This document shows, piece after piece, positions 11,013 to 32,000 of a stretch of DNA of 32,000 nt. The translations under genes and the position numbers were made by a program. The stretch is from positions 1,184,932 through 1,216,931 of the forward strand of contig MGBH01000001.1 in the NCBI GenBank assembly GCA_001790095.1. The letters are read 5' to 3'. This DNA comes from Candidatus Saccharimonadota bacterium (lineage in GTDB: Bacteria > Patescibacteriota > Microgenomatia > UBA1406 > GWC2-37-13). The first letter of the stretch is position 1. The number at the start of each line of letters is the position of its first letter. A model generated the notes under the pieces. That model did not search any database. It was given only the letters and a program-made list of their open reading frames with translations, and was not told where the DNA came from.

Positions 11013-11025
11013 TTGTTTTTTTTGA

Positions 11026-12521: not shown

Positions 12522-12590
12522 ATAAAGTGATAATGAATTAATACCCACATTGTACTAGGTACTAAAGTAATGTCAATTGAAATATATACA

Positions 12591-14123: not shown

Positions 14124-14232
14124 GCTTCTTCACTATATGTAAGTTTTCTCTTCAACACCATCGCATATATGCTACAAAAAAAGTAATTGGATTGTTATGA
14201 AAAAATAAACCAGCATATAGTACAATTAATAA

Positions 14233-16663: not shown

Positions 16664-16680
16664 ACTTATATTTTATCAGA

Positions 16681-16689
16681 TGGTATAAT
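16681..16689 (+). promoter_or_regulatory. Extended -10 element TGgTATAAT for the GT2 gene at 16704
   Basis: TGG TATAAT at 16681-16689, 14 nt upstream of ATG 16704, inside the 40-bp divergent intergenic region. Confidence 0.45.
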
Positions 16690-16703
16690 CATAGGTACCG
16701 TAT

Positions 16704-17528
16704 ATGAAGCCATTTTTCTCAGTGGTGATACCAACATTAAATGAAGAGAGATTTCTTCCCATCATTCTTTCCCGTCTTGTCCGACAAAAGGCACATAACT
16801 TTGAGGTTATTGTCATTGACGGTACTTCAGAAGACAAAACAAAGCAGATTGCTCATCAATTCTCAGGCGTTTTGCCCTTGAGGTTTTATGAAGTAAAGAA
16901 GAGAAATGTTTCCTTTCAGAGGAACTTTGGTAGTCAAAAGGCAAAAGGACAGTATATTATCTTTCTTGATGCAGATGCTCAGATATCGATTACATTCACG
17001 CAAAAACTAATTTCTTATATCTCTCACACGAAGGGTTTGGTATTTATTCCTGCCATTTCACCGGTTGAGGTCAACTCACAGACAAAAGTGGTTTTTAACT
17101 TTGCCAATTTTATCGTTGAGATGTCTCAAAGCATTGGACGTCCTTTTTCATCCGGGGGATCGATGGTGTTTGAAAAGAGCTTTTTTCAACTCATTGGAGG
17201 TTTTTCAGAAAAAGTATATATGTCTGAAGATCATCAGATCATACAGACGGCTTTCAAATATGGAGTAAAGGCGCGTTTTATGCGTGGTATCAAGGTAAAG
17301 ATGTCACTGAGACGGATGAAAAAACAAGGAGAACTAAAGCTTTTTTATCAGTATCTTTTAACCGCTGCTCAGTATTTGATCAAAGGAAAAATTGACAAAA
17401 AGATTATTGAATATCAAATGGGGGGGCATATCTACTTCCAAAAAAAGCTAGATCAACCGCTTGAAGAAAAAATACAGGAGTATCTGCACGAAGCAAAGAG
17501 GTTCTTCAAGACGATCTTTCTCCAATAA
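16704..17528 (+). CDS. Family 2 glycosyltransferase
   Basis: FSVVIPTLNEERFL, VIVIDGTSEDKT and FLDADA (DxD) motifs; 274 aa. Divergent from the other GT2 gene. Confidence 0.88.
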   Translation: MKPFFSVVIPTLNEERFLPIILSRLVRQKAHNFEVIVIDGTSEDKTKQIAHQFSGVLPLRFYEVKKRNVSFQRNFGSQKAKGQYIIFLDADAQISITFTQKLISYISHTKGLVFIPAISPVEVNSQTKVVFNFANFIVEMSQSIGRPFSSGGSMVFEKSFFQLIGGFSEKVYMSEDHQIIQTAFKYGVKARFMRGIKVKMSLRRMKKQGELKLFYQYLLTAAQYLIKGKIDKKIIEYQMGGHIYFQKKLDQPLEEKIQEYLHEAKRFFKTIFLQ

Positions 17529-17649
17529 GACGATTAAGGAATAGTTATCCACAAATTATCTACTATTTTTTTATGGCTTTATATCAATCCATTCTAATAA
17601 TATAAAAATATAGGATATCTCATAATATATATGTATTTTTCTATAGGTC

Positions 17650-17678
17650 TTGACAATTCTTTTTTGTTGGTTTATATT
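17650..17678 (+). promoter_or_regulatory. Best sigma70-like promoter in the window: TTGACA-17 nt-TATATT
   Basis: TTGACA 17650-17655, 17-nt spacer, TATATT 17673-17678. An ATG (17686) follows 7 nt after the -10. Confidence 0.55.
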
Positions 17679-17685
17679 AGTACTC

Positions 17686-17838
17686 ATGAAGATCAATAAA
17701 TTCTTTTTTAACAAAGAGAAAACAATGTATAAGAGATCAGAAAGCAAGAAGTTAGAGTTTATTCAATTTGTTGGAGATCAGTTTAGAGAGCTTAGCCGTA
17801 AGAATCTTGGCTTACCTATGAAGCTTTATCATCTTTAA
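17686..17838 (+). CDS. Candidate leaderless small basic protein (50 aa), no recognisable family
   Basis: MKINKFFFNKEKTMYKRSESKKLEFIQFVGDQFRELSRKNLGLPMKLYHL. The ORF-track start (TTG 17650) is the -35 box itself. ATG 17686 fits the -10-to-ATG spacing seen at many genes here. Coding status is unproven. Confidence 0.4.
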   Translation: MKINKFFFNKEKTMYKRSESKKLEFIQFVGDQFRELSRKNLGLPMKLYHL

Positions 17839-17849
17839 ATCGCATTAAG

Positions 17850-17902
17850 AAAAAAAAAGAGCATCACTACCGCTCGTATAAGGGGACGACGAGTAGTAAT
17901 GC
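17850..17902 (-). terminator. Rho-independent terminator of the DUF2298 gene
   Basis: Minus-strand RNA forms gcauuacuacucgucg / loop / cgagcgguagugaugc (16 positions: 12 Watson-Crick, 2 G-U, 2 mismatches), followed by a run of nine U. It begins 42 nt after the stop at 17944. Confidence 0.65.
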
Positions 17903-17943
17903 CCTTTGCATACATTATCAGAAATAGTTTTTTTTGTCAAGAG

Positions 17944-20136
17944 CTACCGTTTTTTTATTTGATACAGAGCCCCAAATCCATTAGTTGAAGTAAAAATTTT
18001 ATTTCCTAGAGTTGTGAACTTCTCTTCATATAATTTTTTGTATTTATCGCGTTCCATACGAGAAATAACGACAAACTGTATGTCATATTTATCGATAAGT
18101 TCTCTTGTTTTTTGTATATCTCTTGATTCATAAAGATCAATTATGTCTGGAATACGTTTTCCAACGACATCTGATGATCCACGCCACAACCACTCATGTA
18201 CCCACCATCCCGCAACAGTTGGAAGCCCAGTATAAGAAGAGATTCTTTCAAAATCAGTATATGAGTCGCCCTGCGCCTCCAAAATAACTGGTTGATGTTT
18301 GATATTGTCATTCAGGAAATCGACAATCTCTTTATCTTCTGGATAGAATGCTTCAAGCCATCGTATCCCATTGAGCTGAGGTATTTTTTTGAGATTGCCG
18401 TAATAGGCGGGAAATGAATAAAATGGATATATAAAGATTAATGCGAAAAAAAACACAAATACGAGAGATAATATAAATCTGACATTTTTTCTTAAAAGCA
18501 AAATTCTCATAAAAGTATAGGAAGACGCAACACCCATAATCATGAAAGCTTGATAGCCAAGCTTGAACATCGTATTTGCTCGGAAGTGAGCAGGATAAAT
18601 ATCTTTGATATAGAAGAACTCAGGTATAAAAATAAGAAGTGTTCCAAAGGTGAAACAAACAAATACAAAATCATCAATGGCTGTTTGAAGAAGAGATGGT
18701 TTAAGAGTTTGTTTCTGTTGGAAGTACTTTAGAAGAAGAAACAAGGCAAAACATACCCAGAAAAACCCCCATAAAACAAAAAGCATCCAGATGGGATCCG
18801 GTTGACAATTACCTTTTTCAAATAAAAACGGACCAAATTTACCGATGGATACAAGAAAATCAGGACTGCAATTTACTCCAATCCCTGAGACAAAGGGAGA
18901 GAAATGAGAAGAGAAAGGAAATGAAAACAGCAGAAAAGATCCAACAACAACTCCCATGTATAAAAATAGATTCCGGCTGAAACCAAATATAACAATCAAG
19001 AAAAAACCAGTCAAGAGTATATAGATAGGCCCATCAAAGGCATTTGTCATATAATGGATTGCGGTCATGAAACCCAGGAAGATAGTAGAAAGGAGTAGGT
19101 AGTTAGTAGTAAGAGAGTGAAATATTGACTGCGGTTGGTGTTTGTGACTTAATGGGAGTGGTTTTTGATGCTGTGTATCTGTTTGAGACCGTCTGATAAA
19201 CATAATAAACAATATGGCGAGTGTCAGCAATACAAAGGGTATATCAAATACATGTCCATGTAAATCTGCCACCACATAGGAATAAGAAGGAAATTCATGG
19301 ATCGTGAGAGGAATAAATCTTGTTGCGTTAGGATACCAATATTTTGTTGGATTATACCCGGTTAGAATCTTCCAGAATGGGACAGGAGCATCTGCGTTAT
19401 AACCTGAGGTAAAAAGATAGATCGTATGAAGATTTCCTGCAAGATTGACGATAAAACTACCTATAATACCGCCCAAAACAGCATGTTTCATCGATTTATA
19501 AAACAAGTATATGATGTTTCCCGCAAGGGAAAAAACCATTGTGATTGCTTGCGCAAAGATGGTTGCAAGAATAAGGTTGTATCCTATAGAAGATGGGATG
19601 TCAGTAAGCTTTATAAGGACTGCTCCTGTCAAATGACCAAAGTAATAATAGTTGATGGGGTTATTTCCTGCCAACCACATATCAAGAGGAGGAAAAAACT
19701 TTGAACGTAGGATTGAGTTCATAAATCCATAATCCATAAACTTTTCTAAACCTCTGACAGAAGGTTCTTGACCCCTGACATAAGTAAGAAAAAAAAGAGC
19801 AGCAAGAAATAGGATTTCTTCAAACAAAAAGATAAAGAAGTTCTTGTTTATCGATATAGGCGGGAGCAAGTACCCTTTTTTCGTACGTACAACGTACAAA
19901 TAACCGATGAGAAAAACAGCCGCAATCAATATCAGATTGGCCTGCGTGAAGCTTAGTATTTTATATAATCCAAGAATAAAAACAACATAGCTTAAAAAAA
20001 GAATAGCTATGGTTTTTGCAAAAGGATACCCCTTGTCAAAAAAAGAACCAAATATACGCTTTGTAATAGGATACGCTAATATACCAAGAAAAAATAGATA
20101 GACATACCAATTTAAAGTCGTTAAAATCCACTCCAT
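17944..20136 (-). CDS. DUF2298 / 'Chlor_Arch_YYY' large polytopic membrane protein (GT-C-like)
   Basis: 730 aa with more than 15 hydrophobic helices. It has the family-defining NPINYYYFGH motif and a C-terminal soluble domain. TATAAT (20145-20150, minus) lies 8 nt upstream of the ATG. Confidence 0.8.
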   Translation of the reverse strand: MEWILTTLNWYVYLFFLGILAYPITKRIFGSFFDKGYPFAKTIAILFLSYVVFILGLYKILSFTQANLILIAAVFLIGYLYVVRTKKGYLLPPISINKNFFIFLFEEILFLAALFFLTYVRGQEPSVRGLEKFMDYGFMNSILRSKFFPPLDMWLAGNNPINYYYFGHLTGAVLIKLTDIPSSIGYNLILATIFAQAITMVFSLAGNIIYLFYKSMKHAVLGGIIGSFIVNLAGNLHTIYLFTSGYNADAPVPFWKILTGYNPTKYWYPNATRFIPLTIHEFPSYSYVVADLHGHVFDIPFVLLTLAILFIMFIRRSQTDTQHQKPLPLSHKHQPQSIFHSLTTNYLLLSTIFLGFMTAIHYMTNAFDGPIYILLTGFFLIVIFGFSRNLFLYMGVVVGSFLLFSFPFSSHFSPFVSGIGVNCSPDFLVSIGKFGPFLFEKGNCQPDPIWMLFVLWGFFWVCFALFLLLKYFQQKQTLKPSLLQTAIDDFVFVCFTFGTLLIFIPEFFYIKDIYPAHFRANTMFKLGYQAFMIMGVASSYTFMRILLLRKNVRFILSLVFVFFFALIFIYPFYSFPAYYGNLKKIPQLNGIRWLEAFYPEDKEIVDFLNDNIKHQPVILEAQGDSYTDFERISSYTGLPTVAGWWVHEWLWRGSSDVVGKRIPDIIDLYESRDIQKTRELIDKYDIQFVVISRMERDKYKKLYEEKFTTLGNKIFTSTNGFGALYQIKKR

Positions 20137-20225
20137 ATCTCATTATTATAACGGGTAATGGATTGCATGTAGTACAAAATACGACGCAGGTTGCTTTTTT
20201 AGCTTTGAAATGAGAGAATAATAAA

Positions 20226-22379
20226 ATGGACAGCAAGTTCATTCCGTCTTTACATGAGGCTCCTATTTATACATTTTGGGAAAATAGCGGCTTATTTAAA
20301 GCTTCACGTACAAACCCGGCAAAAAAACCGTTTTGTATAATTCTTCCTCCACCAAACGCAAACGGAAGCCTACACCTAGGACATGCGATGTTTACCTATG
20401 AAGACATCATGATACGCTTTCATAAGATGATGAAGGAAGAGACATTGTGGCTTTTGGGTTTAGACCATGCAGGGTTTGAAACACAGTATGTATTTGAGAA
20501 ACACCTTAAAAAACAAGGGAAAAGCCGTTTTGATTATCAAAGAGATGAGCTTTTTGGGATGATATTTGATTATGTAAATGAAAACAAGAAGAATATAAAA
20601 GGGCAGCTTCGGCGGCTAGGGTTTGCTCTTGATTGGAGTAGGGAAAAGTTTACTATGGATCCCGCAATCATAGAGATAGTGTATGGAACTTTCAAGAAAC
20701 TGTTTGACCGGGGATTGGTATATCGAGCAAACAGACTTATTAACTACTGTACTTTTTGCGGCACCTCACTTTCTGATTTAGAGGTAAATAATGTAGAAAA
20801 GGTAGGGGTTTTGCACTACATTAATTACCCCCTTAAAACGGGTGGTTTTATCCAAATTGCAACGACAAGACCTGAGACGATACTGGGAGATGTGGCTGTC
20901 ATGGTGAATCCAAAAGATAAAAGACATAGGGGGGTAATTGGAAAAACGGTCATTTTACCCGTTTCAGGGAGAGAGGTTCCCATAATCGCAGATACATATG
21001 TTGACACGGAATTTGGTACTGGCGCGGTCAAAGTAACACCAAATCATGACTTCAATGATTTCGAAATTGGCAAAAAAAACAATTTACAGTATCCGCCTAT
21101 CATAAACTTTGCTGGACGGATACAAAACACGAATACATCATATGATGGTTTGAAAGTGTTTGCTGCGCGGGAAAAAATCATTGAGGAACTGAAAGAAAAA
21201 GGATTATGGGTAAAAGAAGAAAAAAATAACATGGTGGTAAAAAGTTGCTACAAATGCGGACGAGTCCTTGAACCGCTACCTAAGGAACAATGGTTTATAA
21301 AAGTTAAACCTTTGGCTGATCGTGCAAAAGGATTGGTGAAGAAGAAAGAAATAACCCTGTTTCCTAAACGTTTTGAAAAACAACTCATTCGCATCCTTGA
21401 TGAATTTATCGATTGGAATATATCAAGACAGGTGGTGTGGGGGATACGAATACCGGCATATAGGTGTAAAAAAATGTCAAATGTCCCCACTTCGCTAAAG
21501 CTTCGAGGGGCAAGCAAAAGTCAAAAGTGGTTCGTGAGTATTGAAAAACCTAAGAAATGTCAGATTTGTGGTGAATGTGATTTCATACAGGATGAGGATA
21601 CGTTTGATACATGGTTTTCTTCATCACAATGGCCTTTTGCTACCCTTATGACTGAGGGAAAAAAAACATATGAATACTTTTATCCGACCGCAGTTATGGA
21701 GACGGGTCATGACATTTTACGAGCATGGGTGGCTCGGATGATGATGATAGGTGATTTCGTCACAAACAAACCTCCCTTTAAAACTGTTTTTCTTCACGGG
21801 ATGGTACGGGATGCTAAGGGTCAAAAAATGAGCAAAAGTAAAGGTAATGTAATGGATCCGATCCAATTGGTAGATAAATACGGCGCTGATGCATTACGCG
21901 CTGCACTCATTTTCGGTACAAAAGAAGGAGGAGATGTATCGCTATCAGAAGAAAAAGTAAAAGGCATGAGGAATTTTGCAAATAAAGTATGGAATGTAGG
22001 ACGATTTATTGAGCTAAACTCCAAATCCCAAAATCCAAATTCCAAACAAATTCCAAGCCCCCAATCAAAAATTATTGTTGAGCTAGAAAAAGAAGCGACT
22101 GAGTTGAAAAAGAAATACATGAATTATATGAAGAGATATCGTTTTTCACAGGCACTAAACGACCTACATGAGTTCATCTGGCACAGATTTGCTGATTATT
22201 ATATCGAGCAGTTGAAAGAAGAACTCAAAAATGGTAACATACAAGTTCTTGATACATTGAAATGTGTGTATCTTGATAACATTAAGATGCTTCATCCATT
22301 TATGCCTTTTATGACTGAGGCAGTGGGGCAGGTATTTTACGGCAAACAAACATCCTTGTTACAAATTGGATTTACTTAA
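20226..22379 (+). CDS. valS: Valyl-tRNA synthetase (compact, 717 aa)
   Basis: HIGH motif [24 protein letters not shown], editing-domain motifs [10 protein letters not shown] and [26 protein letters not shown], and KMSKS motif KMSKSKGN. There is no C-terminal coiled-coil extension. Confidence 0.92.
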
Positions 22380-22380
22380 T

Positions 22381-22524
22381 ATGGCAACCAAACGAACGTA
22401 TCAGCCTAAAAAAAAGAAGAGAATACGAAAGCACGGATTCATGAAGCGCATGAGCACTCATGATGGGCGAAATGTGTTAAAAAGAAGAAGACAAAAGGGA
22501 AGAAAAAAATTAATTGTTGTCTAA
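22381..22524 (+). CDS. rpmH: 50S ribosomal protein L34
   Basis: Hand translation: [47 protein letters not shown] (47 aa, below the ORF-track cutoff). It matches the L34 pattern K-R-T-[FY]-Q-P...HGF..RM.T..GR.VL..RR.KGRK.L. It starts 1 nt after the valS stop. Confidence 0.93.
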
Positions 22525-22548
22525 GCTTTTAGATTATTATTACTTAAT

Positions 22549-23379
22549 ATGGAATATATAAGCAGTGTTTTCAATGCTCTCTTCTTCAATCCGATTCTCA
22601 ATTTGTTAGTTGGTTTCTATAAACTATTTACTCTCATTAAACTACCCGGAGCTTTTGGATTCTCGATAATTGCTCTTACTTTATTTGTACGCCTTCTCCT
22701 TCATCCATTTTTTAAGCAACAAATGGATACGGCAAAAAAAATGCAAGATATTAAACCTCACCTTGACAAACTCAATGATAAACATAAGAAAGACCCCAAG
22801 AAATTACAGGAGGAACAGATGAAGCTTTATCAACAAGCAGGGATCAATCCAGCCTCAGGTTGTCTTTTTATGATTATCCAAATGCCAGTTTTTATCGCTT
22901 TATATCAAGTATTGGGTAAATTTTTAGAAGGTCATATGGTCAAAACGGTCCTGGAGATCAATAAGGCTCTTTATTTTTCTTTTTTAAAATTCAAAACGAT
23001 TGATCCTTGGTTTTTTGGAATAAATCTGGTGACTACTCCTGAAAAAGCCGGAAGCGTCTTTTATTATCTTGTACCTGTTATAACCGCACTATTACAATAT
23101 CTGCAGGTGCAAAGCTCAACGCCAATGGTTTCTCCAGTTAAAGTTGACGATTCAAAGGGATCCGCCTCCGCCAAGACTTCGGCTGATGAAGCAAAGAAAA
23201 ACGATGGGGGAGATTTCCAAAAAGCAATGAACACTCAGATGAAATATATATTTCCTCTTATGATTGGATGGTTTTCTATGAGAATGCCTATTGGTTTATC
23301 GCTTTACTGGAATATCTTTTCATTGTTTAGTATAATCCAGTACAAACAAATTAATAAGAAGAAGGCAAATAATAAATAG
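22549..23379 (+). CDS. yidC: YidC/Oxa1-family membrane insertase (short form)
   Basis: LHPFFKQQMDTAKKMQDIKPHLDKLNDKHKKDPKKLQEEQMKLYQQAGINP and GCLFMIIQMPVFIALYQVL core, then LSLYWNIFSLFSIIQ and a basic tail; 276 aa. Confidence 0.92.
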   Translation: MEYISSVFNALFFNPILNLLVGFYKLFTLIKLPGAFGFSIIALTLFVRLLLHPFFKQQMDTAKKMQDIKPHLDKLNDKHKKDPKKLQEEQMKLYQQAGINPASGCLFMIIQMPVFIALYQVLGKFLEGHMVKTVLEINKALYFSFLKFKTIDPWFFGINLVTTPEKAGSVFYYLVPVITALLQYLQVQSSTPMVSPVKVDDSKGSASAKTSADEAKKNDGGDFQKAMNTQMKYIFPLMIGWFSMRMPIGLSLYWNIFSLFSIIQYKQINKKKANNK

Positions 23380-23409
23380 AGTTTTTAATTTATCAATTAA
23401 TTCAAATAT

Positions 23410-23892
23410 ATGGATAAAACAACGGTGGTAAAAGCAGAGACAGAAGAACTATTAAAAAAATTAGTGGAAGCATACACTTTAGAAGTAAACGAACAGGAAG
23501 GCGCATTTCAGATCATTATCAAGACTGAAGAAGCTCCAACTATAATCGGACGCCACGGAGAGACCATACGAGCGATCCAAAAGATACTTGAAGTTATCTT
23601 ATATAAAAAACTTCAAGAATCAGTACATGTCCTTATCAATGTAAATGATTATCGTGAAAAACAGCAGGAAAGGCTTGAGTACATGGCTTCTCAATACGCA
23701 GATAAAGTCAACGAGTCCCGCCAACCTGAAAATGTGTTTCACCTTTCCTCATATGAAAGGCGGATTATTCACCAATATATAACTTCAAACTATCCTGATC
23801 TTGCAAGCTACTCAGTTGGAGAAGGACGTGACCGCAAACTTGTGATAGACTTGAAAGAGAATGCACCCAAAACAGAAAGCACAGAAGTTTAA
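23410..23892 (+). CDS. jag: Jag/KhpB-like RNA-binding protein (KH + R3H)
   Basis: KH-like IIGRHGETIRAIQKILE and R3H ERRIIHQYITSNYPDLASYSVGEGRDRKLVI. It sits in the classical position downstream of yidC. Confidence 0.88.
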   Translation: MDKTTVVKAETEELLKKLVEAYTLEVNEQEGAFQIIIKTEEAPTIIGRHGETIRAIQKILEVILYKKLQESVHVLINVNDYREKQQERLEYMASQYADKVNESRQPENVFHLSSYERRIIHQYITSNYPDLASYSVGEGRDRKLVIDLKENAPKTESTEV

Positions 23893-24095
23893 TCCGATAT
23901 TTATTCTTTTCCTTCCTGCGATATTTGTATTTGACGTTGTATATTATATGTATACTCGGTCTACCTGTTTTCAATGTGGAAATATGGGTGAATTTATCAA
24001 GACTTCTTCCCTCACTTTTTACACTTTAAATCAAACCGTACAGATGCTTTTCGCTAAAAAAGTCACAAAGTAGATGGTGTAATTCTGCTCAAGAA

Positions 24096-24104
24096 TGCTA
24101 CAAT
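24096..24104 (+). promoter_or_regulatory. Extended -10 element TGcTACAAT, 6 nt upstream of the ATG of the 1224-aa gene (leaderless-type arrangement)
   Basis: TGCTACAAT at 24096-24104, ATG at 24111. No purine-rich SD lies between them (atatacct). Confidence 0.45.
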
Positions 24105-24110
24105 ATACCT

Positions 24111-27100
24111 ATGGCAGCAACAAACCCGGAACATCATACAGGAGCACCGACAGAAAACGACACATTAAAAGCTGAGGTAGCAAGACAGTCCGCATCACAG
24201 CTCGTTGATGAAGTAAAGAAGATAGGAAAGATGGCCGGTGAAGTCAAACGCGCCGTGGATGCTTCAGTTGATGCTGCAAGAAAGGCTCCTGACACGTTTG
24301 AAGGAGACAAACAAGATAAAGATACTGCACGAGGTCGAGCTCACAGCGTGCAACGAACAGTAAAAAAAATCTTAATGGCAGCAAGATTCCCTGATAAATT
24401 AAAGCCAATCCCTGGAGAGGACGCACAAAGAGAAGTCGTGACACCGATCGCTTCTTCACTTCTCAAACAGTTAAGTAGTCGCATTGATCCGGAATATGAT
24501 GTATCAGAACAGACAGCCCCTTATCTACATCAAATCATAGATAAGGTACTTAGCGGAGGGATAGCAAACGCTGATGATCTGAAAATTGAGCTTGATAAGC
24601 TAAACAACCTTAAGCTTGTGAATCCGGACCTGTATAAAGAGGTACAGGAATCATTTGTTGAGGTCGCAAAAGATACAGGAGTGAGTGAAAAAGATGCAAA
24701 ACAGAAATTTAATGTTGAAGAGCCACCTGTAGAACAAACCCAACCCACGCCTGACAAACCAGCAGACCTGCCACCGCAAGAATTAACACCTGATCAACAA
24801 CGGGAACTTATGAATAAAGCAAGAGAAATGCAGGCGAGAGAGATGCATGGAGAAGGTAGAACTGAGTTTGATGCTTCATGGGGGCGTTATTTTTCTGATT
24901 ATTTTTCTGTATCAGACCAACCCCTTTTAAAAGCCATCTTTGACCCTGAAGAATTTAAATCATATGTTGAGACTGCTAAAGAAGAGGTTGCAAGACAGTT
25001 GGGATTGGCAAAAACCGATGATGATGTTGGAAAAAAGGTATCAAAAGATATAGAGCGGGGTGTGGTTGAACTATTTGGTAAGCTATATACACGACTTGAC
25101 CATGAACGGGCAAGTGAATTCTTTGAGCAGATAGAACAACAAGACGTAATGTCAGGTATCTTGCCTGCTAAAAATGCACTGAAGCGGCGACTGGAGAAGT
25201 TGGCAACAGCTCTTCACCATGATGGAGATTTGGGTTTATTTAAAGATGGAGAGATAAAGTCTGAGAATTCAGATATACCTTTTAAAGACAAAGAGGGGAA
25301 AGTAAGACTTAAACCACGACTTCTTATCCATCCATATCCTGAAGCAAAAAGGGCATCGACCTCAGACTTCATACACTATCTTGATTTAAAGATTGACACA
25401 TATATTGATACGCGCAAATATACTCACGATGCGCGAGCTATTTTTTTACATCCAGTTGATCCAGAAAAAGGTTTTTATTCACAACTTGCCCGTTTTGCCG
25501 AACAGATGACGACCGTTGATTTTGATCAAATGTTTCTGCTTCCTGATGCCGACATCTTTCAAAGCGCACTTCTGCTTTATGATAAACATGTTGATGAGAT
25601 GTTTGCAAAAAATGATTGGCGTCATGCTCCGACCATGTTTCAACCAAAATCAGGAAGTCATCGAAATCAGCTAGAAGAAGACGTATTGCATAGATTAAAA
25701 CAAATGTATGGAAAAGATGTGAGTGATGCTCGACTTGATGCCGCCGTCACCATGGCTGTTGGAGCATCAAGAGGAATGTTTTTGACAGAGATAGAAAAAG
25801 CGGCTTTTGCCGATCCGCATGTAAATGAAGATGGAAGCATAACGTATGCGAGCTATTACAATAATGACACTTCAGCTCTTAACGCTTTTAATCCTATGCA
25901 TACGTTTTTGCGCTTTCAGGGAGTCAGAAGCACAGATCCTATCTTATTTATGCCTGTTGAAGGAGATAAATTTCAAGGATCAGTCTTTACTGATCATCGA
26001 ACTATGTGGAAAAACATGATGGCATATAAGGATGCATTTATAAGCGGTCGGAAAGGTGCCGGTTTAAAAGAAGGAGAGGTATTGTTTGCAGACTACCTTA
26101 TGAATATCGGAAAAGTAGGAGGTCCTATGGAGCGGAAAGGTTGGAGAACTACCTACATATTACAACCTCTTTATTATAAGGATAAAAAGGGTATAACAGA
26201 GGGAGAACAAACAAGTGAAATTTTTGATCATGTACATACGTGGCAAAGATTTGAAAATATCGGTTATGAGATAGCACAAGACTTTGTTACAAAACTGAAG
26301 CCTGATTTTAAGGGGGCATATGCAGGAGGCGCGGGTTTAGCAAACGAACGATACGTAGACCAAAAAAAGGCACTTTTTAGCTACATATTTGACAGATATT
26401 TTACTGATCAGAAAGACACAACAACAGTAGATGCATATTTAAAAAACATTAGAAAAAACGCTGAGGCGGAAGTATGGAGAAGTATCAAGGAAGGCAAGGC
26501 GCCAGCTCCAAATGATGTAAGGGCAGAGATAGAGTCTCATGTCACTATGACATTTCTTAACCGGACTCTTTCTCGCTTGGTAGCTCAACGAATTCCCTCT
26601 AAAATCCTTCGGATAGATCGTGACCGGATGAGTGAAGCTGGAAAAAGCAGATGGCGTACCATCGCTGAGGAGATGTTTCCTGAAAAGGAGGTTGGAGATA
26701 AACAATCTGAGAAGTTTGACATGGTAATAAAAGATCTTCTTTTCGCTGAACAACTGCTTAGATCTGAAGTAAGCGCAAAGATGAGAGAGATAAAAAAACT
26801 ACCCGAAAGTGAACACTGGAAGTTTGGCCATATTTCATATGAACTAACCCAAGAGACTGCAAGAGCTTTGCTTGCTGCAAAAGGATTTGATCAGGCACAG
26901 ATAGATAAAGTATGTACTCTTCTTGGCAAGATCGAGACTCATTTTACCCATAATACGAATTTCTTGGATAAGACACTTCTTAAATTTGTACAAGCAGGGG
27001 ATACTATTGTTAAAGAATACAAATTTACATTTGGACTTGAAGAGCTTGATATGAGTTTTATCCCGTGGAGAGCTGCCGGAAACAGGATGTTACCGCGTGC

Positions 27101-27785
27101 AATAGGAGACATATCGGTTACAGAAAAAGCAGTCGCAGGAGAAATCATGAAGCTACCCGCGACTTTGAACAAGATAGCGATAGATGGTAAGCACGACTTT
27201 TCTCCTATCCTTGAAATCTGTGAAAAAGTGTACGGCTCCATGGAGGGTATCATCGGTCCTGATTATGCTCACAGACTAGTACATCACATAGCAGCAACTA
27301 CTATAAACTATTTTAAAAAAGATACGGTAGCCAGGTGGGCACATGGATTATTTGGTATAGGACGGAGAAACTCTCTTGCAGCGGAGCGAGCAGGAGGAAG
27401 TTCAAGAGTATGGGAATGGGATAGTACTGATATAGATCGTTTTTGTGTTGCACTTGAATCAAGAAGTGTTCTGCCAAATAGCAGTAGAAATCCATCGAAT
27501 CCAAAGCCTGAGTATGCTCCTATTTATATCAATCGGCACTTTTTTGGAAAACCAATCAAACTTCCCATGGAAATCAAAATGTTTGGAAGATCTATTCCAC
27601 TTTTTAGGAAGCGCAAACCTGACTTTGCATGGACTATAAAGAATTTACGTGATAAATTTGGAGGAAATTGGAAAGATATCGCTTTCGATATGGTAAACAA
27701 ATACATACCATTTGTTATTGCATGGCTATTATTAAAATATATAAAAGATGCACTCGATGAATCAGAAGGAAAAAAGAAAAAATAG
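24111..27785 (+). CDS. Giant orphan protein (1224 aa), no signal peptide, short hydrophobic segment near the C-terminus
   Basis: Uninterrupted 3.7-kb ORF with an ATG start. Charged, Ala-rich N-terminal ~200 aa, then a Pro-rich linker (EEPPVEQTQPTPDKPADLPPQELTPDQQ), then ~950 aa of aromatic-rich globular-looking sequence, ending in YIPFVIAWLLLKYI + DALDESEGKKKK. I found no Walker A or other motif I recognise. Confidence 0.8.
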   Translation: MAATNPEHHTGAPTENDTLKAEVARQSASQLVDEVKKIGKMAGEVKRAVDASVDAARKAPDTFEGDKQDKDTARGRAHSVQRTVKKILMAARFPDKLKPIPGEDAQREVVTPIASSLLKQLSSRIDPEYDVSEQTAPYLHQIIDKVLSGGIANADDLKIELDKLNNLKLVNPDLYKEVQESFVEVAKDTGVSEKDAKQKFNVEEPPVEQTQPTPDKPADLPPQELTPDQQRELMNKAREMQAREMHGEGRTEFDASWGRYFSDYFSVSDQPLLKAIFDPEEFKSYVETAKEEVARQLGLAKTDDDVGKKVSKDIERGVVELFGKLYTRLDHERASEFFEQIEQQDVMSGILPAKNALKRRLEKLATALHHDGDLGLFKDGEIKSENSDIPFKDKEGKVRLKPRLLIHPYPEAKRASTSDFIHYLDLKIDTYIDTRKYTHDARAIFLHPVDPEKGFYSQLARFAEQMTTVDFDQMFLLPDADIFQSALLLYDKHVDEMFAKNDWRHAPTMFQPKSGSHRNQLEEDVLHRLKQMYGKDVSDARLDAAVTMAVGASRGMFLTEIEKAAFADPHVNEDGSITYASYYNNDTSALNAFNPMHTFLRFQGVRSTDPILFMPVEGDKFQGSVFTDHRTMWKNMMAYKDAFISGRKGAGLKEGEVLFADYLMNIGKVGGPMERKGWRTTYILQPLYYKDKKGITEGEQTSEIFDHVHTWQRFENIGYEIAQDFVTKLKPDFKGAYAGGAGLANERYVDQKKALFSYIFDRYFTDQKDTTTVDAYLKNIRKNAEAEVWRSIKEGKAPAPNDVRAEIESHVTMTFLNRTLSRLVAQRIPSKILRIDRDRMSEAGKSRWRTIAEEMFPEKEVGDKQSEKFDMVIKDLLFAEQLLRSEVSAKMREIKKLPESEHWKFGHISYELTQETARALLAAKGFDQAQIDKVCTLLGKIETHFTHNTNFLDKTLLKFVQAGDTIVKEYKFTFGLEELDMSFIPWRAAGNRMLPRAIGDISVTEKAVAGEIMKLPATLNKIAIDGKHDFSPILEICEKVYGSMEGIIGPDYAHRLVHHIAATTINYFKKDTVARWAHGLFGIGRRNSLAAERAGGSSRVWEWDSTDIDRFCVALESRSVLPNSSRNPSNPKPEYAPIYINRHFFGKPIKLPMEIKMFGRSIPLFRKRKPDFAWTIKNLRDKFGGNWKDIAFDMVNKYIPFVIAWLLLKYIKDALDESEGKKKK

Positions 27786-27808
27786 TATTAATCCTGTATG
27801 ATATAAGT

Positions 27809-28588
27809 ATGATACGGAACATAACATTAATTAGCATTTTTTGTTTGTTTTTTCTTCTAAAATCAAACGTTTTAGCACAGTCTCCTACTTCAAGCTGTCC
27901 AGGGTTTAATGGAGGACCAGAACCACTGATGTTGGGTGTTAACTGTGGCGTAATAAACAGTAGTAATCCCTGTAGTGCGAAATGTTGTGCCGAACAACCC
28001 TTTTCAGTACACGCGTCAATACCTGGAATATTTAATGTTCTTCCTGGTGCTCAAGATGTTGTTGATGATTTTTTGAGAGACAAATTAAATCCAATACTTG
28101 AATATAAAAGGCAGGTTACTATGCAACCGTGTATCAATATGGGTAGTCCTACTACCCCCGGAGATCTTTCAAATGCAGCCTGTGTTTGTTTAGAACCTAC
28201 TCCAGCCACCTTATCTGCAATACTTAATTTGTGTCAGAATATAAAAAATACAAATGAGAGAGATGCATGTAATAATTGTTTGCAAGGAAATACTTCTGAC
28301 CGTAAGGTAGGTGTATGGACGGGTATCGGTTGTGTATATAGTGATATAAATGGATTTATTCAACATACTCTTTTAGGTTGGGGTATAGGGTTGGCTGGGG
28401 GAATATCTATGCTATGTATCCTCTATGCGGCTTTCATGATGCAAACATCCAGAGGTAATGCAGAGGTGGTAAAAAAAGCTCAACAACTCATGACTTCATG
28501 CATAACAGGTCTTATGCTTATTATATTTTCAGTATTCATACTCAGATTAATTGGAATCACAATCCTAAGAATACCCGGATTTAACTAA
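27809..28588 (+). CDS. Secreted Cys-rich protein ending in a VirB2/TrbC-like (T4SS-pilin-like) two-helix hairpin
   Basis: Signal peptide MIRNITLISIFCLFFLLKSNVLA|QS and an ectodomain with 12 Cys. The C-terminus is GWGIGLAGGISMLCILYAAFMMQTSRGNAEVVKKAQQLMTSCITGLMLIIFSVFILRLIGITILRIPGFN. That is, helix - short polar loop (S-R-G-N-x-E-x-V-K-K-A) - helix, the topology of TrbC/VirB2-type pilins. The family assignment comes from memory of that pattern, not from a search. Confidence 0.7.
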   Translation: MIRNITLISIFCLFFLLKSNVLAQSPTSSCPGFNGGPEPLMLGVNCGVINSSNPCSAKCCAEQPFSVHASIPGIFNVLPGAQDVVDDFLRDKLNPILEYKRQVTMQPCINMGSPTTPGDLSNAACVCLEPTPATLSAILNLCQNIKNTNERDACNNCLQGNTSDRKVGVWTGIGCVYSDINGFIQHTLLGWGIGLAGGISMLCILYAAFMMQTSRGNAEVVKKAQQLMTSCITGLMLIIFSVFILRLIGITILRIPGFN

Positions 28589-28596
28589 GTTGAAGT

Positions 28597-30333
28597 TTAT
28601 TTTTTCTCTCCTTGTTCAGTGGGATTATCCGATTTAGCTTTATATCGAGCCGTATCAGGCGCAGGCATTCCGCTTGTTCCTATCATCTGACCAATTGTTT
28701 TACCAGTAATCGCACTGAGACCCATACTTAAAGTACTTATTTGGCCAACCAAGCTCAGTCCTCCACCAGCCGCAGAACCTGCGCCTCCAAAGAATGTCCC
28801 TAAGCCAAGATTTATTGGAAGAGGCTTTATGCCGAGTGAATCCTTAACTAGTTTTACAAGATCAGGTATCATAAACATTATTCCTAACCCCAACAGTGTT
28901 GAAAATGCCAAAGGATCAATGCCTAGCAAAAAGGGTGGAAACCAGAAGTCGCCAGGATAGGCAAGAGAGTTCATAATGACGTTTCCAACAAGAAACACAG
29001 TAATAATCACAGGAAAAGTAAGTAATTCAGCGAGAAGATTCTTAAACCAAGTAGTAAAACCGGACTTTCCAGGTATTGCATCAATAAGAATAAAAAGTGG
29101 AGCGGTTACGATTAAAAATAATATTTGAAGATATGCACGAAACAACATAAAAAACACACGAAATACCAGAGCAATAATAGTAAAATAGATAACTAGTCCT
29201 ATGATGACTCCGGCACCATATAACATAAGATATGCAAATATTGCAGCAAAAAGAGTCGTTGAACCAACAGACAATAAAGTACTACCAACAAGTTTTCCTA
29301 AATTTATTCCAAATGTGGCAGCCTCAGCACCCATGTTATCAACTAATTCCATGACTTTAAAAGGATATGTGAGAAGTATTGAGAAATCTTTTATTAAAAA
29401 AAAGCCTGCAAATGCTCCACTCACTAATCTAAACACATTATTTACATATGTTGGAAATAGAGTCATAAAGGCAGTTCCAACATCAGTGATAGTTCCAAGA
29501 AATACATCACCTGAGATCCCAGTTAAGTTTTTTCTAATTGGTTGGAAAGAAAGATATATGTTCCAGGGCGTTGCTGATAAATATTCATTTTGCATACTAC
29601 CTACATCGTAATTGGCGCCTCCATTACTTAAAATTGATATTATTATTGCGATTAATATATACATTAGATCAATCAAGAACCCGGCAATTGCAAAGGAAAA
29701 AGTTATAAGCAGAAGTGAAGTTACGATCTTGGGAAGTGCATTCTCAACAGAAATGACTGTTTGAGGATTAATTTTCGTACGAAACATAATCATGAAACCA
29801 ATTGAAACAAGGATAATGACAAGGATAAGATATGCGATATCCCTAAATATTTTCCATACATTCATAAGAGGCTTTATTGCTCCAAATCCCATACCTTCAG
29901 ACGCATATGATTTGGGTACAAATCCAGCATCTTGAAGATTGGTATATACCCAGTATATGCCTGATGCAGGTGGGTTCGCAAAAGGTATAGTGATAAGTTT
30001 AGAGAGATATCCTGAAACACTTTTTGAGACGTTTTTATCACCATCACTAGGATTATCTGTACATGCTTCACCGCTAAAAAAACAGGTATGCATGCGATAG
30101 ATAAAAAGAGCGATTTTACCACTCTTCTTAGCATTAAGCTCCTTATTATTAAGCGCTTTATAAATCTGTTTTCTTGCCAGTTGAGTGACATTTTTTGGAT
30201 TGTATTGTGGTTTATTTTTAGAGAAAAATGAAGCAAAAATCCCAATAATAAAAGCGTAGACTATAAGTACAATTATAGCTTTTTTGCCAAAATTAAAACA
30301 TGAACGAAATAACTGTTTTACCATCGGTATCAT
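28597..30333 (-). CDS. Polytopic membrane protein with Gly-rich C-terminal tail, possibly VirB6/TrbL-like
   Basis: 578 aa. N-terminal anchor, ~110-aa extracytoplasmic segment, then at least 8 hydrophobic helices (e.g. IAYLILVIILVSIGFMIMF, SLLLITFSFAIAGFLIDLMYILIAIIISIL, VIIGLVIYFTIIALVFRVFFMLF). The tail is GLGTFFGGAGSAAGGGLSLVGQ... It is the last gene of the minus-strand operon, 13 nt after the 159-aa ORF. Confidence 0.65.
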   Translation of the reverse strand: MIPMVKQLFRSCFNFGKKAIIVLIVYAFIIGIFASFFSKNKPQYNPKNVTQLARKQIYKALNNKELNAKKSGKIALFIYRMHTCFFSGEACTDNPSDGDKNVSKSVSGYLSKLITIPFANPPASGIYWVYTNLQDAGFVPKSYASEGMGFGAIKPLMNVWKIFRDIAYLILVIILVSIGFMIMFRTKINPQTVISVENALPKIVTSLLLITFSFAIAGFLIDLMYILIAIIISILSNGGANYDVGSMQNEYLSATPWNIYLSFQPIRKNLTGISGDVFLGTITDVGTAFMTLFPTYVNNVFRLVSGAFAGFFLIKDFSILLTYPFKVMELVDNMGAEAATFGINLGKLVGSTLLSVGSTTLFAAIFAYLMLYGAGVIIGLVIYFTIIALVFRVFFMLFRAYLQILFLIVTAPLFILIDAIPGKSGFTTWFKNLLAELLTFPVIITVFLVGNVIMNSLAYPGDFWFPPFLLGIDPLAFSTLLGLGIMFMIPDLVKLVKDSLGIKPLPINLGLGTFFGGAGSAAGGGLSLVGQISTLSMGLSAITGKTIGQMIGTSGMPAPDTARYKAKSDNPTEQGEKK

Positions 30334-30346
30334 ATTTTATTCTACA

Positions 30347-30826
30347 TCATTTAAACCCAAATCTATCCAGCGGAATATTTGGGTAATTAGTATTAAGCCA
30401 CAGATCAAAGTCTTTTTTGTTAATATCCTTTGGCTCTTTAAGGGTAACGATAAAAATATCATTTGCATAGTCAAACGTAATGGTAAAAGAATCTTCGCTA
30501 AGGGGAGTTTTTTGTCGAAGCTCCCTTTTTTGGACAGCAAGATCAGTTTCTTCTTGAGGGATGTTTTGTTTTTCAAGTCCGCCGGTAAAGGTGGGGGCAA
30601 GGGGGGGAAGGGTTGGGAACGTATCGGGTCCCTGAGGTTCTTCATGAGGCGTAATATTAAGTTCTAACGGTTGTTTTGGTTCAATGAGTGTTGGAAGAGG
30701 AAGCTTAGTAGGTTTAGGTTGGGATGGAGTTTGTTTTTTTGTCTGTGGTATGAAAAGGATGATCACTATCAAAACAAGAAGAAATATAAAGGGAACGACG
30801 TAATAGAGTTTTATGTTTGAGTTCAT
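30347..30826 (-). CDS. Small anchored Pro-rich protein carrying the same ~45-aa domain as the shared module of the two paralogs
   Basis: 159 aa. TM anchor VVPFIFLLVLIVIILFI, a Pro-rich linker, then PLSEDSFTITFDYANDIFIVTLKEPKDINKKDFDLWLNTNYPNI. This aligns with PLEEEDFILDYAPNLSKLVVTRKTPQADASFAKWAKTQGYPRL of the 390-aa protein. It starts 1 nt after the upstream stop. Confidence 0.7.
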   Translation of the reverse strand: MNSNIKLYYVVPFIFLLVLIVIILFIPQTKKQTPSQPKPTKLPLPTLIEPKQPLELNITPHEEPQGPDTFPTLPPLAPTFTGGLEKQNIPQEETDLAVQKRELRQKTPLSEDSFTITFDYANDIFIVTLKEPKDINKKDFDLWLNTNYPNIPLDRFGFK

Positions 30827-30827
30827 A

Positions 30828-32000
30828 TTATTTTTTTACTCCAAAAGCTGCGATATATTTAGGAAATGGATAACGACTATTTTCATTTATGGGTGGAGTA
30901 GAGTTTTTACCATAGTAGGGGTCAAAAGCGTATATGTTGCCCTCCTCATCTATATCAGTGATCCAGAAATAATGTCCGCACCCGGCTTCACAATAACTTG
31001 CAAGTGCAAATATGGTCCACCCATTGTCTAAGTATGATCTAAAATCATCAATCACATCCTCCGCAATATATTTTGTAGCACTATAGGGGAGTATATAATC
31101 TGATGTTTTTACTCCATGACTACTTAAAGTTCCCTTAGCTACACCAAGACCTGTGCCACAACCTGCACCACCCACTGATTTATATATATCTACCACCTCA
31201 GGGGGAGTGTATTTTGTATCGATAAAGCTTGAAAGGATCATAGCAACAGTCGTTGGGCCACATCCGCCTCTGCAAATACTGCAGCTTTCAGTCAGCGGAT
31301 AATCATCATATGGTCCATCACATTGGGGATAGTAAATATATCCTCCATATGATTTAGGAGAAGAAGAACTGGAAGAACTTTTTGGTTTTTCCGTCACCCT
31401 CGGAGTCACTCCTCCCGTAACCATCACCGGCGGACGGATCATAAGACCAAACAAGGTAAACAGATCGGTAAGACCTTGTTCAGGGCTCTTGGTGACATAG
31501 GGAGTCTGTACTTCCTCCATGGTCTTATCCGAGATGATGGTGGTCTTGATATTGTCTACAAGGCGAGGATATCCTTGAGTCTTTGCCCACTTAGCAAATG
31601 AGGCATCAGCCTGAGGAGTCTTCCGGGTGACAACAAGCTTAGAGAGGTTGGGAGCATAGTCAAGGATAAAGTCCTCTTCTTCAAGAGGAAGAGAGAGGGA
31701 AGATTGTACTTCCTTCAGTGTTTGTTGTGCTTCCTGTTCTGTTTTCTGTTCTGCCTCTTTCCTTGCCTTCTGTTCTCTATCCTCCTCTACAAAAGAGGAG
31801 TTAGAAGAAGAGGAGGAAGAGAGAGATGAGGAGTATCTCTTATCTACTTGTACAGCTGTTGGAAAGGGAGTTGGAAAGGGAGAGGTTATCGAGGAGGACT
31901 CAGGCTTACTCTTTAGTAAAGATTGAATAAAAAATATACCTATCACAAGGATAAAGAGTATGGAAAGTGCAATGACAAGGTATTTTTTTGAGTTATTCAT
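30828..32000 (-). CDS. Membrane-anchored secreted modular protein, paralog B: shared N-terminal module + papain-fold Peptidase_C39-like cysteine peptidase domain
   Basis: 390 aa; the ATG is the last three bases of the window. The N-terminal ~190 aa are shared with paralog A. The C-terminal domain has CSICRGGCGPTTVAMILSSF (nucleophile Cys in a C-G-P-T context as in C39-like peptidases), CGHYFWITDID (His) and AFDPYYG (Asp/Asn candidate). Confidence 0.75.
   Translation of the reverse strand: MNNSKKYLVIALSILFILVIGIFFIQSLLKSKPESSSITSPFPTPFPTAVQVDKRYSSSLSSSSSSNSSFVEEDREQKARKEAEQKTEQEAQQTLKEVQSSLSLPLEEEDFILDYAPNLSKLVVTRKTPQADASFAKWAKTQGYPRLVDNIKTTIISDKTMEEVQTPYVTKSPEQGLTDLFTLFGLMIRPPVMVTGGVTPRVTEKPKSSSSSSSPKSYGGYIYYPQCDGPYDDYPLTESCSICRGGCGPTTVAMILSSFIDTKYTPPEVVDIYKSVGGAGCGTGLGVAKGTLSSHGVKTSDYILPYSATKYIAEDVIDDFRSYLDNGWTIFALASYCEAGCGHYFWITDIDEEGNIYAFDPYYGKNSTPPINENSRYPFPKYIAAFGVKK
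31422..31988 (-). repeat. Copy B of the intragenic direct repeat (partner 615..1169), 567 bp because of a 12-bp tandem duplication
   Basis: Identical by eye to copy A except for gttggaaagggagttggaaagggag (about 31858-31884) versus gttggaaagggag in copy A. This gives PFPTPFPT versus PFPT. Confidence 0.9.

Follow-up and report, generated by a model that had tools for sequence, protein, structure and literature searches.

The stretch of DNA analysed here (32,000 nt from a groundwater bacterium, Candidatus Roizmanbacteria; hereafter the window) carries a protein-coding gene at each of its ends, A and B, both on the minus strand. The two genes share an N-terminal coding part, which we call the head, and continue into different C-terminal parts, the tails. 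The features that are referred to below are the following.

1..1172, minus strand: gene A, truncated at the window boundary (390 of its 417 aa lie inside the window), 30 nt after the SOD gene
1..614, minus strand: A tail, a Pro-rich linker and a Cys-rich domain with the conserved motif WIEESAAGGAT
615..1169, minus strand: copy A of the head, 555 nt, 100% identical to copy B apart from the 12-nt insertion in B
1203..30827, no strand: segment between genes A and B, deletable by crossover between direct repeats
27809..28588, plus strand: 259-aa secreted Cys-rich protein, C-terminus weakly T4SS-pilin-like, conserved in L007 and L009
28597..30333, minus strand: 578-aa polytopic membrane protein, third gene of the B operon, with orthologues in L007 and L009
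30347..30826, minus strand: 159-aa gene just downstream of B, a membrane helix and a domain similar to the head's first half
30828..32000, minus strand: gene B, 390 aa, its ATG occupying the final three bases of both window and contig
30915..31337, minus strand: B tail, Peptidase_C39_2 domain (aa 222-362; Pfam PF13529) with invariant Cys, His and Asp
31422..31988, minus strand: copy B of the head, 567 nt in the NCBI version
31422..31691, minus strand: globular part of the head, B aa 104-193 (equivalent in copy A, 615-884)
31871..31882, minus strand: 12-nt in-frame tandem duplication, PFPT to PFPTPFPT, seen solely in copy B of the NCBI version
31917..31985, minus strand: single N-terminal transmembrane helix, B aa 6-28, preceded by KK (hydropathy scan)

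Local alignment of the two head copies (615-1169 and 31422-31988) showed 0 mismatches. The aligned blocks pair 1169-1064 with 31988-31883 (106 nt) and 1063-615 with 31870-31422 (449 nt), with 12 extra bases in copy B, as a first-pass annotation of this DNA had described (no substitutions and a 12-bp in-frame duplication in copy B). The 386-aa version of protein B (P0003, P0004), encoded on contigs from JGI, ENA and NCBI, is without the duplication, and in assembly L005 the two copies match at 555/555 nt, ungapped. Translations of both genes bear out that the identity begins at the KKYL codons (A: MKKYLV; B: MNNSKKYLV) and stops after ...MIRPPVM, and these sharp junctions are simply both ends of the homologous segment. 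An exact 449/555-nt match within 32 kb cannot be a chance event, though 'perfect' here may mean at least ~99%, as all assemblies used are short-read and a few true differences inside the repeat could be merged. The copies are in direct orientation at a spacing of 30,807 nt. Besides this pair, a repeat scan of the window (at least 40 nt) returned one weak inverted pair alone.

The head consists of the membrane helix (at about 1098-1166 in copy A), a Ser/Pro-rich spacer, a charged helix, a small beta-beta-alpha-beta domain and a hydrophobic helix; its globular part was delimited from alignments A1 and A5 and modelled by AF2 with a pLDDT of 75.6. The tails are unrelated to each other (BLASTP E 0.75; hhalign probability 1%), which upholds the earlier description of unrelated C-terminal domains. 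The continuation of B into a C39-like domain, also noted at first pass, is borne out by a match to Peptidase_C39_2 (PF13529) at E 1.3e-6 and 29.4 bits (cut-off 24). The same match is precomputed for many B homologues, and GCG, H150 and D167 (tail numbering) are invariant across 23 homologues of the tail, which is thus predicted to be a C39-like, papain-like Cys-His-Asp peptidase.

The full-length gene A encodes 417 aa (L002:10646-11899) and equals OGK63093 and related records. Its tail has 24 homologues, carries the invariant residues and was modelled with an AF2 pLDDT of 84. The tail has no Pfam match and no significant sequence or fold match; the fold search gave weak matches only, the best being GH73, SLT and phage peptidoglycan hydrolases. 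One A-tail homologue matches Glucosaminidase at E 0.043 (Pfam), and a sequence-profile search of the PDB with the A family gave low-complexity or chance matches only. The A tail is possibly a candidate lysozyme-like glycosidase. We read A and B as membrane-anchored, outward-facing enzymes that probably cut the cell wall, and both may act on peptidoglycan.

A profile search with the head identified 108 protein clusters (50% identity) that carry it at roughly aa 60-220. In Roizmanbacteria and related Patescibacteria the head precedes peptidoglycan hydrolases of many kinds, and it is also found as a stand-alone protein. The tails in these clusters include C39_2 (23), M74 (6), CHAP (5), SLT/SLT_3 (4), M15_4/VanY (2) and M23 (1), so the module with many catalytic tails that had been proposed from the window is true of the wider family (at least six catalytic domain families). 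The head itself matches nothing in Pfam or NCBIfam and has no significant fold match. From its associations, it looks like a recurrent partner of peptidoglycan hydrolases. Modular wall hydrolases that share a targeting module include the pneumococcal choline-binding hydrolases and phage endolysins, and the head family resembles them in combining one non-catalytic module with many unrelated peptidoglycan-hydrolase domains. Unlike in those proteins, the head is N-terminal, follows a membrane anchor and falls outside described families, and a role in binding the wall or a partner is putative.

The segment enclosed by the two genes encodes SOD, TrmD, a ClpB-like protein, DprA, RNase Y, RecX, RecA, a ComM-like protein, an ATP-dependent ligase, a ValS-type enzyme, RpmH, YidC and Jag. 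As the first-pass annotation had pointed out, recA (11499-12548), the Val-type class I tRNA synthetase gene (20226-22379), rpmH (22366-22524) and yidC (22549-23379) all lie between the direct repeats, and a crossover would remove them. Gene A is followed directly by the gene of an ABC-transporter ATPase, and the head-like 159-aa gene is conserved 3' of B in L007 and L009. The neighbouring proteins of 578, 1224 and 570 aa had no informative Pfam match even when the thresholds were relaxed. The 259-aa protein matched NCBIfam NF045849 (E 0.004) and Pfam PF18895 (E 0.025) over the same residues (187/188-247), both below cut-offs. PF18895 pilin genes lie ~5 kb from A and from B; neither the 10 kb upstream of B nor the 10 kb downstream of A contained a virB4.

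Base 32000 of the window (in B's ATG) is the final base of NCBI contig MGBF01000001.1, 12 nt past copy B, and the genuineness of the two copies was evaluated with independent assemblies. A 626-kb JGI contig (L005) spans the ClpB-like gene, a 45-nt spacer, the head and the B tail, and a 208-kb ENA contig (L002) spans SOD, the head, the A tail and the ABC transporter. These contigs (assemblies rather than reads) join each flank to the head and to the right tail, and confirm both head copies, each in its own context. The earlier statement that the promoters are unrelated stands in that L005 shows a region upstream of B unrelated to that of A; the window, which ends at B's ATG, cannot show it. Other assemblies break or cycle exactly at the head repeat, as is expected of a true two-copy repeat.

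It could be argued that one copy, or the perfect identity, arose from repeat collapse or from a chimeric join at a contig end, given that the NCBI contig stops 12 nt beyond copy B, that one Logan contig ends exactly at the 3' end of the repeat, and that a hybrid 383-aa protein (A start and B tail) is found on self-closing ~30.9-kb contigs. Two metagenome scans (B-specific 5' junction; head 5' end) also gave 0 matches, in a collection without this organism. We consider such an artefact very unlikely, because long contigs from other samples and assemblers link the unique flanks to the head and the correct tail, A and B orthologues of other species show the same head and tail architectures at the same loci, the contig topology has both an entry to and an exit from the 30.8-kb segment, which requires two copies, and the NCBI version retains the 12-nt difference between them. 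Could the hybrid gene instead be real, with crossover at the repeat releasing the 30.8-kb segment as a circle, or multiplying it in tandem, in part of the population? The hybrid protein (P0001) occurs on seven contigs, and the length of contig L003 (30,936 nt) equals by our arithmetic the repeat spacing of 30,807 nt plus a terminal overlap of ~129 nt. However, a collapsed repeat yields exactly such a cycle in a de Bruijn graph, assemblers routinely emit such cycles, ~129 nt is near the largest k-mer that assemblers typically use, and the segment holds normally single-copy housekeeping genes, all of which makes a real hybrid highly improbable.

Relatives provided the evidence on the history of the head. 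Orthologues of B with the MNNSKKYL start and the same operon were found in other Roizmanbacteria (L006-L009, P0012, P0038 and P0059, the last from another sample), with heads 43-70% identical to the window's, and this distribution indicates that the head of B is ancestral. L007 and L009 retain the B tail at the syntenic locus, and the A tail is likewise kept in L014 and L010/L011. The A locus varies among relatives between tail only, head only, and head with tail: the more distant, syntenic A orthologue P0013 (yidD-trmD-SOD-A) has no head and consists of a membrane helix, a Pro/Thr linker and the A domain, and in L018 the gene that separates SOD from the ABC transporter encodes a head alone. 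A sister species (L014), for which the comparison concerns the A gene, carries head and A tail with an MKKYL start, the head being 64%, the tail 71% and neighbouring genes 61-85% identical to those of the window. Since the sister's A gene already has a diverged head (64%) before a 71% tail, the fusion is most simply older than the split, and the head was probably in A before the two species separated. The nucleotide identity of 100% in the window would then reflect later homogenisation.

In a neighbour-joining tree of heads, the two copies of the window grouped at 100% bootstrap, and the A-type P0032 grouped with the B-type P0074 at 99%. The heads thus group by lineage, not by tail type. The P0032/P0074 grouping shows that heads were exchanged between gene types at some time; the two proteins come from different samples. 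Identity of the window's shared head is 64% with the A head of the sister and 68-70% with the B heads from L006-L008, but the tree places the shared head weakly with the former (68.5%). A search with a 4-sequence head alignment found one head locus per related genome, among genomes that do not include the window's own.

We interpret the head identity as probably the result of gene conversion between A and B. The head is 100% identical at the nucleotide level against unrelated tails and unrelated upstream regions, the pattern of concerted evolution; it was probably in both genes before the last speciation, judging from the sister's A head (64%) and the many B orthologues with a head; and head segments group by genome or lineage. 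In this process, the two heads would have become alike along all of their homologous part (KKYL codons through PPVM), likely by non-reciprocal homologous recombination (gene conversion), whereas a reciprocal crossover would delete normally essential genes and should not persist. RecA-type conversion may be the mechanism (recA sits between both head copies), and conversion may be recurrent rather than a single event. The preference for gene conversion over a mobile-element boundary, expressed at first pass, is thus strengthened by the diverged head of the sister and by the lineage grouping of heads. A mobile-element boundary was rejected: there is no transposase or integrase, and both copies of the repeat are internal to genes, with limits that coincide with those of the protein homology.

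Gene conversion between dispersed paralogues is known from tufA/tufB of Salmonella and E. coli and from rRNA operons, which resemble A/B in having distant, near-identical segments with differing flanks and crossover products that are selected against. Unlike in tufA/tufB, only one domain-encoding part of A and B is homogenised and the rest is non-homologous, and the genome is a 1.2-Mb Patescibacteria genome.

The identity could also date a single event, in which the head was newly duplicated onto the other gene and no conversion took place. Domain shuffling clearly happened at the A locus, as its varying architecture (tail only, head only, head with tail) attests. Nonetheless, we regard such one-off copying as unlikely, considering that the sister's syntenic A gene has a head with the MKKYL start whose 64% identity is in step with neighbours at 61-67%, and that the identical tract covers exactly the region that is homologous between A-type and B-type genes. 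Even less probable is the polymorphic toxin/effector reading of the first-pass annotation, in which a constant delivery module would carry swappable C-terminal toxin cassettes, each with an immunity gene. One head does occur with at least six catalytic domain families, peptidoglycan hydrolases can serve as antibacterial effectors, and a life on other bacteria has been proposed for these organisms (PMC12102498). A and B also resemble the CdiA, Rhs and LXG polymorphic toxins in their conserved N-terminal part, sharp junction and variable C-terminal enzymes. They differ from these systems in having no known trafficking domain, immunity gene, orphan cassettes or tail swapping at orthologous loci. 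The head, with no Pfam, NCBIfam or significant fold match, matches no known delivery domain; the proteins are membrane-anchored via an uncleaved-looking helix; and what follows A directly is the ABC transporter and what follows B the conserved head-like 159-aa gene, neither being immunity-like. Further head or tail copies and orphan tails were absent from the window, L002 and L005 (~50 kb); the first module search, in which B's own cluster was not among the matches, is silent on a third copy. At orthologous loci, where tail variation had been proposed as the thing to look for, the tails are stable, and only the presence or absence of head or tail varies, at the A locus. The tails are thus conserved orthologues at fixed loci in other species, and those found elsewhere with the head are peptidoglycan hydrolases, so that we do not retain the toxin reading.

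The shared head may target both enzymes to a common site or partner. For a cultivated relative, PMC12102498 reports that growth on the host requires a peptidase and a lysozyme homologue encoded beside virB4. TraG of pIP501 and PrgK of pCF10 (cited in PMC12102498) are bifunctional VirB1-type hydrolases from the T4SS of monoderms. A and B are similar to TraG/PrgK in that an N-terminal anchor would put a candidate glycan-cutting domain and a Cys-His peptidase domain outside the membrane. In contrast to TraG/PrgK, the activities would be split over two polypeptides with a shared head rather than joined in one chain (if A is a glycosidase), the B peptidase is C39-like and not CHAP, and there is no virB4 within 10 kb beyond each gene. 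An origin-proximal position is typical of Patescibacteria T4SS (PMC12102498), and a putative VirB2-like pilin gene lies near A and B in such a position, although the pilin matches are below cut-offs. We tentatively raise the possibility, which we rate as rather doubtful at present, that the head is an undescribed, Patescibacteria-specific docking module that places at least six hydrolase families and head-only proteins at one envelope machine, perhaps an origin-proximal T4SS/pilin apparatus.

Our results have a practical side, as the repeat breaks or cycles every short-read assembly examined. Through it, public databases have acquired a 383-aa protein that is probably a chimera, and 'circular' contigs of 30.9 kb that are rich in housekeeping genes, which users of these records should treat with caution. 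The locus appears to be a clean natural case of domain-limited gene conversion in a Patescibacteria genome, a group with tiny genomes, few repeats and a largely unknown envelope biology; no general principle is changed by it. The uncharacterised N-terminal domain family (108 clusters) marks candidate wall hydrolases, including an unannotated Cys-rich family. If the docking reading is true, selection for the same partner would account for identical heads being maintained by conversion on one enzyme that cuts glycan and another that cuts peptides, and A and B together would correspond to the bifunctional VirB1-type enzymes of monoderm conjugation systems, split in two but targeted jointly. Should the head target its enzymes to a T4SS-like machine, it would help to explain how these organisms remodel their own wall or that of their host.

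Local alignment of the minus-strand genes at the start (gene A) and end (gene B) of the window confirmed that they carry an identical N-terminal module, hereafter the head, with no substitutions, as the first-pass annotation had proposed. Bases 1169–1064 equal 31988–31883 (106 nt) and 1063–615 equal 31870–31422 (449 nt), both with zero mismatches. Copy B has 12 additional bases (31871–31882), the tandem duplication described earlier, which turns PFPT into PFPTPFPT. Identity starts at the KKYL codons (MKKYLV in A, MNNSKKYLV in B) and stops past MIRPPVM, beyond which the C-terminal domains (tails) are unrelated, also as claimed (BLASTP E 0.75; profile–profile probability 1%). The features discussed here are:

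615–1169, minus strand, head copy A (local alignment)
31422–31988, minus strand, head copy B (local alignment)
30347–30826, minus strand, 159-aa gene after B, a membrane helix and a C-terminal domain like the first half of the head
27809–28588, plus strand, 259-aa secreted Cys-rich protein, C-terminus weakly T4SS-pilin-like, below cut-offs

The heads are direct repeats at a spacing of 30.8 kb, and the segment between them carries SOD, trmD, a ClpB-like gene, dprA, RNase Y, recX and recA, as well as an ATP-dependent ligase, a Val-type tRNA synthetase (valS), rpmH, yidC and jag, which bears out the arrangement noted previously for recA, valS, rpmH and yidC. Within this segment, valS overlaps the start of rpmH (22366–22524) by 14 nt, and yidC follows after 25 nt (from 22549) with rnpA absent between them. 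Two plus-strand genes encode proteins without any family match, one of 1224 aa (24111–27785; hydrophilic, with a C-terminal hydrophobic segment) and one of 570 aa (5463–7175).

The ATG of B (31998–32000) is the last triplet of MGBF01000001.1 (GCA_001790045.1; 1,216,931 bp), so that the window stops where the contig does, 12 nt past the repeat. Because a contig end beside a repeat is suspicious, independent assemblies were examined, and these were 100% identical to the window across all overlaps. The host is a Candidatus Roizmanbacteria of the Rifle aquifer series, with identical A and B proteins in four sibling genomes (contigs of 1,216,967 and 1,217,580 bp), and it seems that a near-complete chromosome has been cut at the head repeat in several deposited assemblies. 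An ENA MEGAHIT contig (L002; 208 kb) shows the order SOD, head, A tail and ABC transporter, and in a JGI contig (L005; 626 kb) a 45-nt spacer separates head and B tail from a divergent ClpB-like gene of 1240 aa. The MNNS start of B and an upstream region unrelated to that of A, as the annotation had stated, are therefore real. The L005 copy of B lacks the 12-nt duplication and matches copy A at 555/555 nt. This indel, which the NCBI version has and the JGI/ENA version (proteins P0003 and P0004) lacks, may be a strain polymorphism or an assembler merge.

Among other public contigs, a Logan contig (L004) breaks off precisely where the head finishes on its 3' side (window 615). A 30,936-nt contig (L003; JGI 3300025121) runs SOD, head, B tail and onward, also holds recA, valS, rpmH and yidC, and by our arithmetic closes on itself with an overlap of ~129 nt. 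This cycle is most likely the pattern of a collapsed two-copy repeat in an assembly graph, and the seven public contigs with a hybrid 383-aa protein (P0001; A start and B tail) are probably chimeric database entries. It is also conceivable, if less likely, that the 30.8-kb segment is truly amplified or excised and the hybrid gene genuine. The assembly patterns are those of a true two-copy repeat, and two copies are required because the topology demands a way into the segment as well as a way out of it. It is possible that a few real differences within the head were merged by assemblers.

A gene with head and A tail was also found in the sister species (L014), which is fully syntenic (neighbouring proteins 61–85% identical) and whose head and tail are 64% and 71% identical to those of the window. 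The fusion therefore seems older than the split from this species, and two heads left to diverge freely since then could not match at all nucleotide positions. The two window heads paired with 100% bootstrap in a neighbour-joining head tree. The A-type protein P0032, with a tail 71% identical to that of A, carries a head with only 33% identity to that of the window, and this head is closest to the one in the B-type P0074 (99% bootstrap). Heads follow lineage, not tail type, the hallmark of heads being exchanged repeatedly between the two gene types. On the direction of the last event the signals differ: the shared head is slightly closer in identity to the B heads of other species (68–70%) than to the sister's A head (64%), but the tree places it weakly (68.5%) with the latter.

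Non-reciprocal homologous recombination between the two heads is the simplest account. The identical tract coincides exactly with the region of homology between A-type and B-type genes, and the sharp junctions are therefore limits of homology rather than cassette boundaries. Between the copies lies recA. With a reciprocal crossover the normally essential valS, rpmH and yidC would be lost, and conversion products alone should therefore persist. Since homologous recombination requires runs of identical sequence, one isolated event between heads that had already diverged by 30–40% would be unlikely, which favours conversion that we infer to be frequent and continuing. The gene conversion proposed earlier is thus well supported, both by the lineage grouping and by the probable presence of head and A tail before the sister split. 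It is the same in kind as conversion between dispersed paralogues such as the tuf genes but is limited to one domain-encoding segment.

B orthologues in other Roizmanbacteria (L006–L009, P0012, P0038, P0059) begin with MNNSKKYL or MNNGKKYL and retain both head and C39-like tail, with heads 43–70% and tails 59–71% identical to the window's; the head is thus an ancestral feature of the B lineage. Where flanking DNA exists (L007 and L009), the neighbourhood is kept, namely a divergent ClpB-like gene, B, a membrane protein of 148–159 aa with a domain like the head's first half, a polytopic membrane protein of ~580–600 aa and, in convergent orientation, a Cys-rich pilin-like protein of 250–285 aa. 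The C-terminal domain of the window's 159-aa protein is ~19% identical to the first half of the head (alignment A5), with the common pattern DF..Y...V...K and F..W...YP. The 578-aa polytopic protein (28597–30333, minus strand), kept in the relatives' B operon, is without a family match. A divergent ClpB-like AAA+ gene lies near each locus (713 aa near A, 2914–5055, plus strand; 1240 aa beside B, L005:6233–9955, minus strand). The two proteins are ~50% identical over 576 aa, the longer one having large extra regions, and the pair may be a remnant of an old segmental duplication or a coincidence.

The majority of A-family members have nothing but the A domain behind a membrane helix and a Pro/Thr-rich linker, including P0013 at the same yidD–trmD–SOD locus. 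Between SOD and the ABC transporter, one relative (L018; JGI 3300076802; 5805–6272) has a head-only gene of 155 aa with its own stop codon, and a similar 158-aa gene occurs on a 966-nt contig (L017:374–850). Head-less A- and B-family homologues retain a short hydrophobic motif just ahead of the Pro/Thr linker (LLDIFVNPG and LINLLFSG in B types; LPSLLSLKIWPT in A types).

Both proteins begin with a single strongly hydrophobic helix, with KK just before it. This is followed by a Ser/Pro-rich spacer, a charged stretch (predicted long helix), a small beta-beta-alpha-beta domain with a short hydrophobic helix (AF2 model, mean pLDDT 75.6) and, last, a flexible linker. The head had no match in Pfam or NCBIfam and no significant fold match. 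The B tail matches Peptidase_C39_2 above the Pfam threshold, in agreement with the earlier C39-like assignment, and its Cys (GCG), His and Asp are invariant in 23 homologues. The A tail, with 24 homologues detected, many conserved cysteines and the motif WIEESAAGGAT, had no sequence match in Pfam or PDB. Its predicted model is confident (pLDDT 84), and its best fold matches in PDB and BFVD were all non-significant (E >0.1). The top matches in both libraries include peptidoglycan glycosidases (SagB, Acp autolysin, MltD, phage glucosaminidase and an SLT protein); a lysozyme-like A tail is a lead, not a finding.

A head profile searched against 1.84 billion representative proteins recovered 108 clusters, whose named members are Roizmanbacteria or Patescibacteria. 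The head almost always occupies about residues 60–220, and some proteins have two copies; in P0058, P0063–P0068 and P0075, two tandem heads precede a C39_2, CHAP or M15_4 domain in proteins of up to 440–820 aa. Pfam matches included Peptidase_C39_2 (23 clusters), Peptidase_M74 (6), CHAP (5), SLT/SLT_3 (4), M15_4/VanY (2) and M23 (1), with a few isolated matches to unrelated families. One module with many catalytic tails is thus true across the head family, and the recognisable tails are overwhelmingly peptidoglycan hydrolases. These tails and the head-only proteins point to a role for the head in anchoring, targeting or regulating wall hydrolases.

The polymorphic-toxin or swappable-cassette architecture suggested at first was not borne out, and A and B do not match such toxins in kind. 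This reading was rejected because the head is without a known delivery domain and because tails stay fixed at orthologous loci rather than varying behind a constant module. No immunity-like gene directly follows A (an ABC transporter does) or B (the conserved head-like 159-aa gene does), and the ~50 kb of sequence available contained no orphan cassettes.

The TraG/PrgK hydrolases of monoderm T4SS, in which a glycan-cutting domain and a Cys-His peptidase are joined to a membrane anchor, offer a functional analogy to A and B. The rpmH–yidC–jag genes usually lie near the replication origin, and the B operon is a few kb from them. The operon adjoins the weakly pilin-like 259-aa gene (E 0.004 and 0.025, neither reaching its cut-off), and clear PF18895 T4SS_pilin genes occur ~5 kb from both A and B (L002:16655–17316; L005:5055–5372). 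According to a 2025 survey (PMC12102498), Patescibacteria T4SS genes are often near the origin, and Microgenomatia commonly carry VirB2-like pilin arrays, with VirB6 difficult to detect in them. The survey also reports that epibiotic growth of a cultivated Saccharibacterium requires a peptidase and a lysozyme homologue encoded next to virB4. Because no virB4 was found in the available flanks, a tie between these putative wall hydrolases and a T4SS is offered by analogy as a hypothesis only. The database chimeras arising from the head repeat merit a note, and follow-up would be best directed at the previously undescribed head family and the unannotated A domain.
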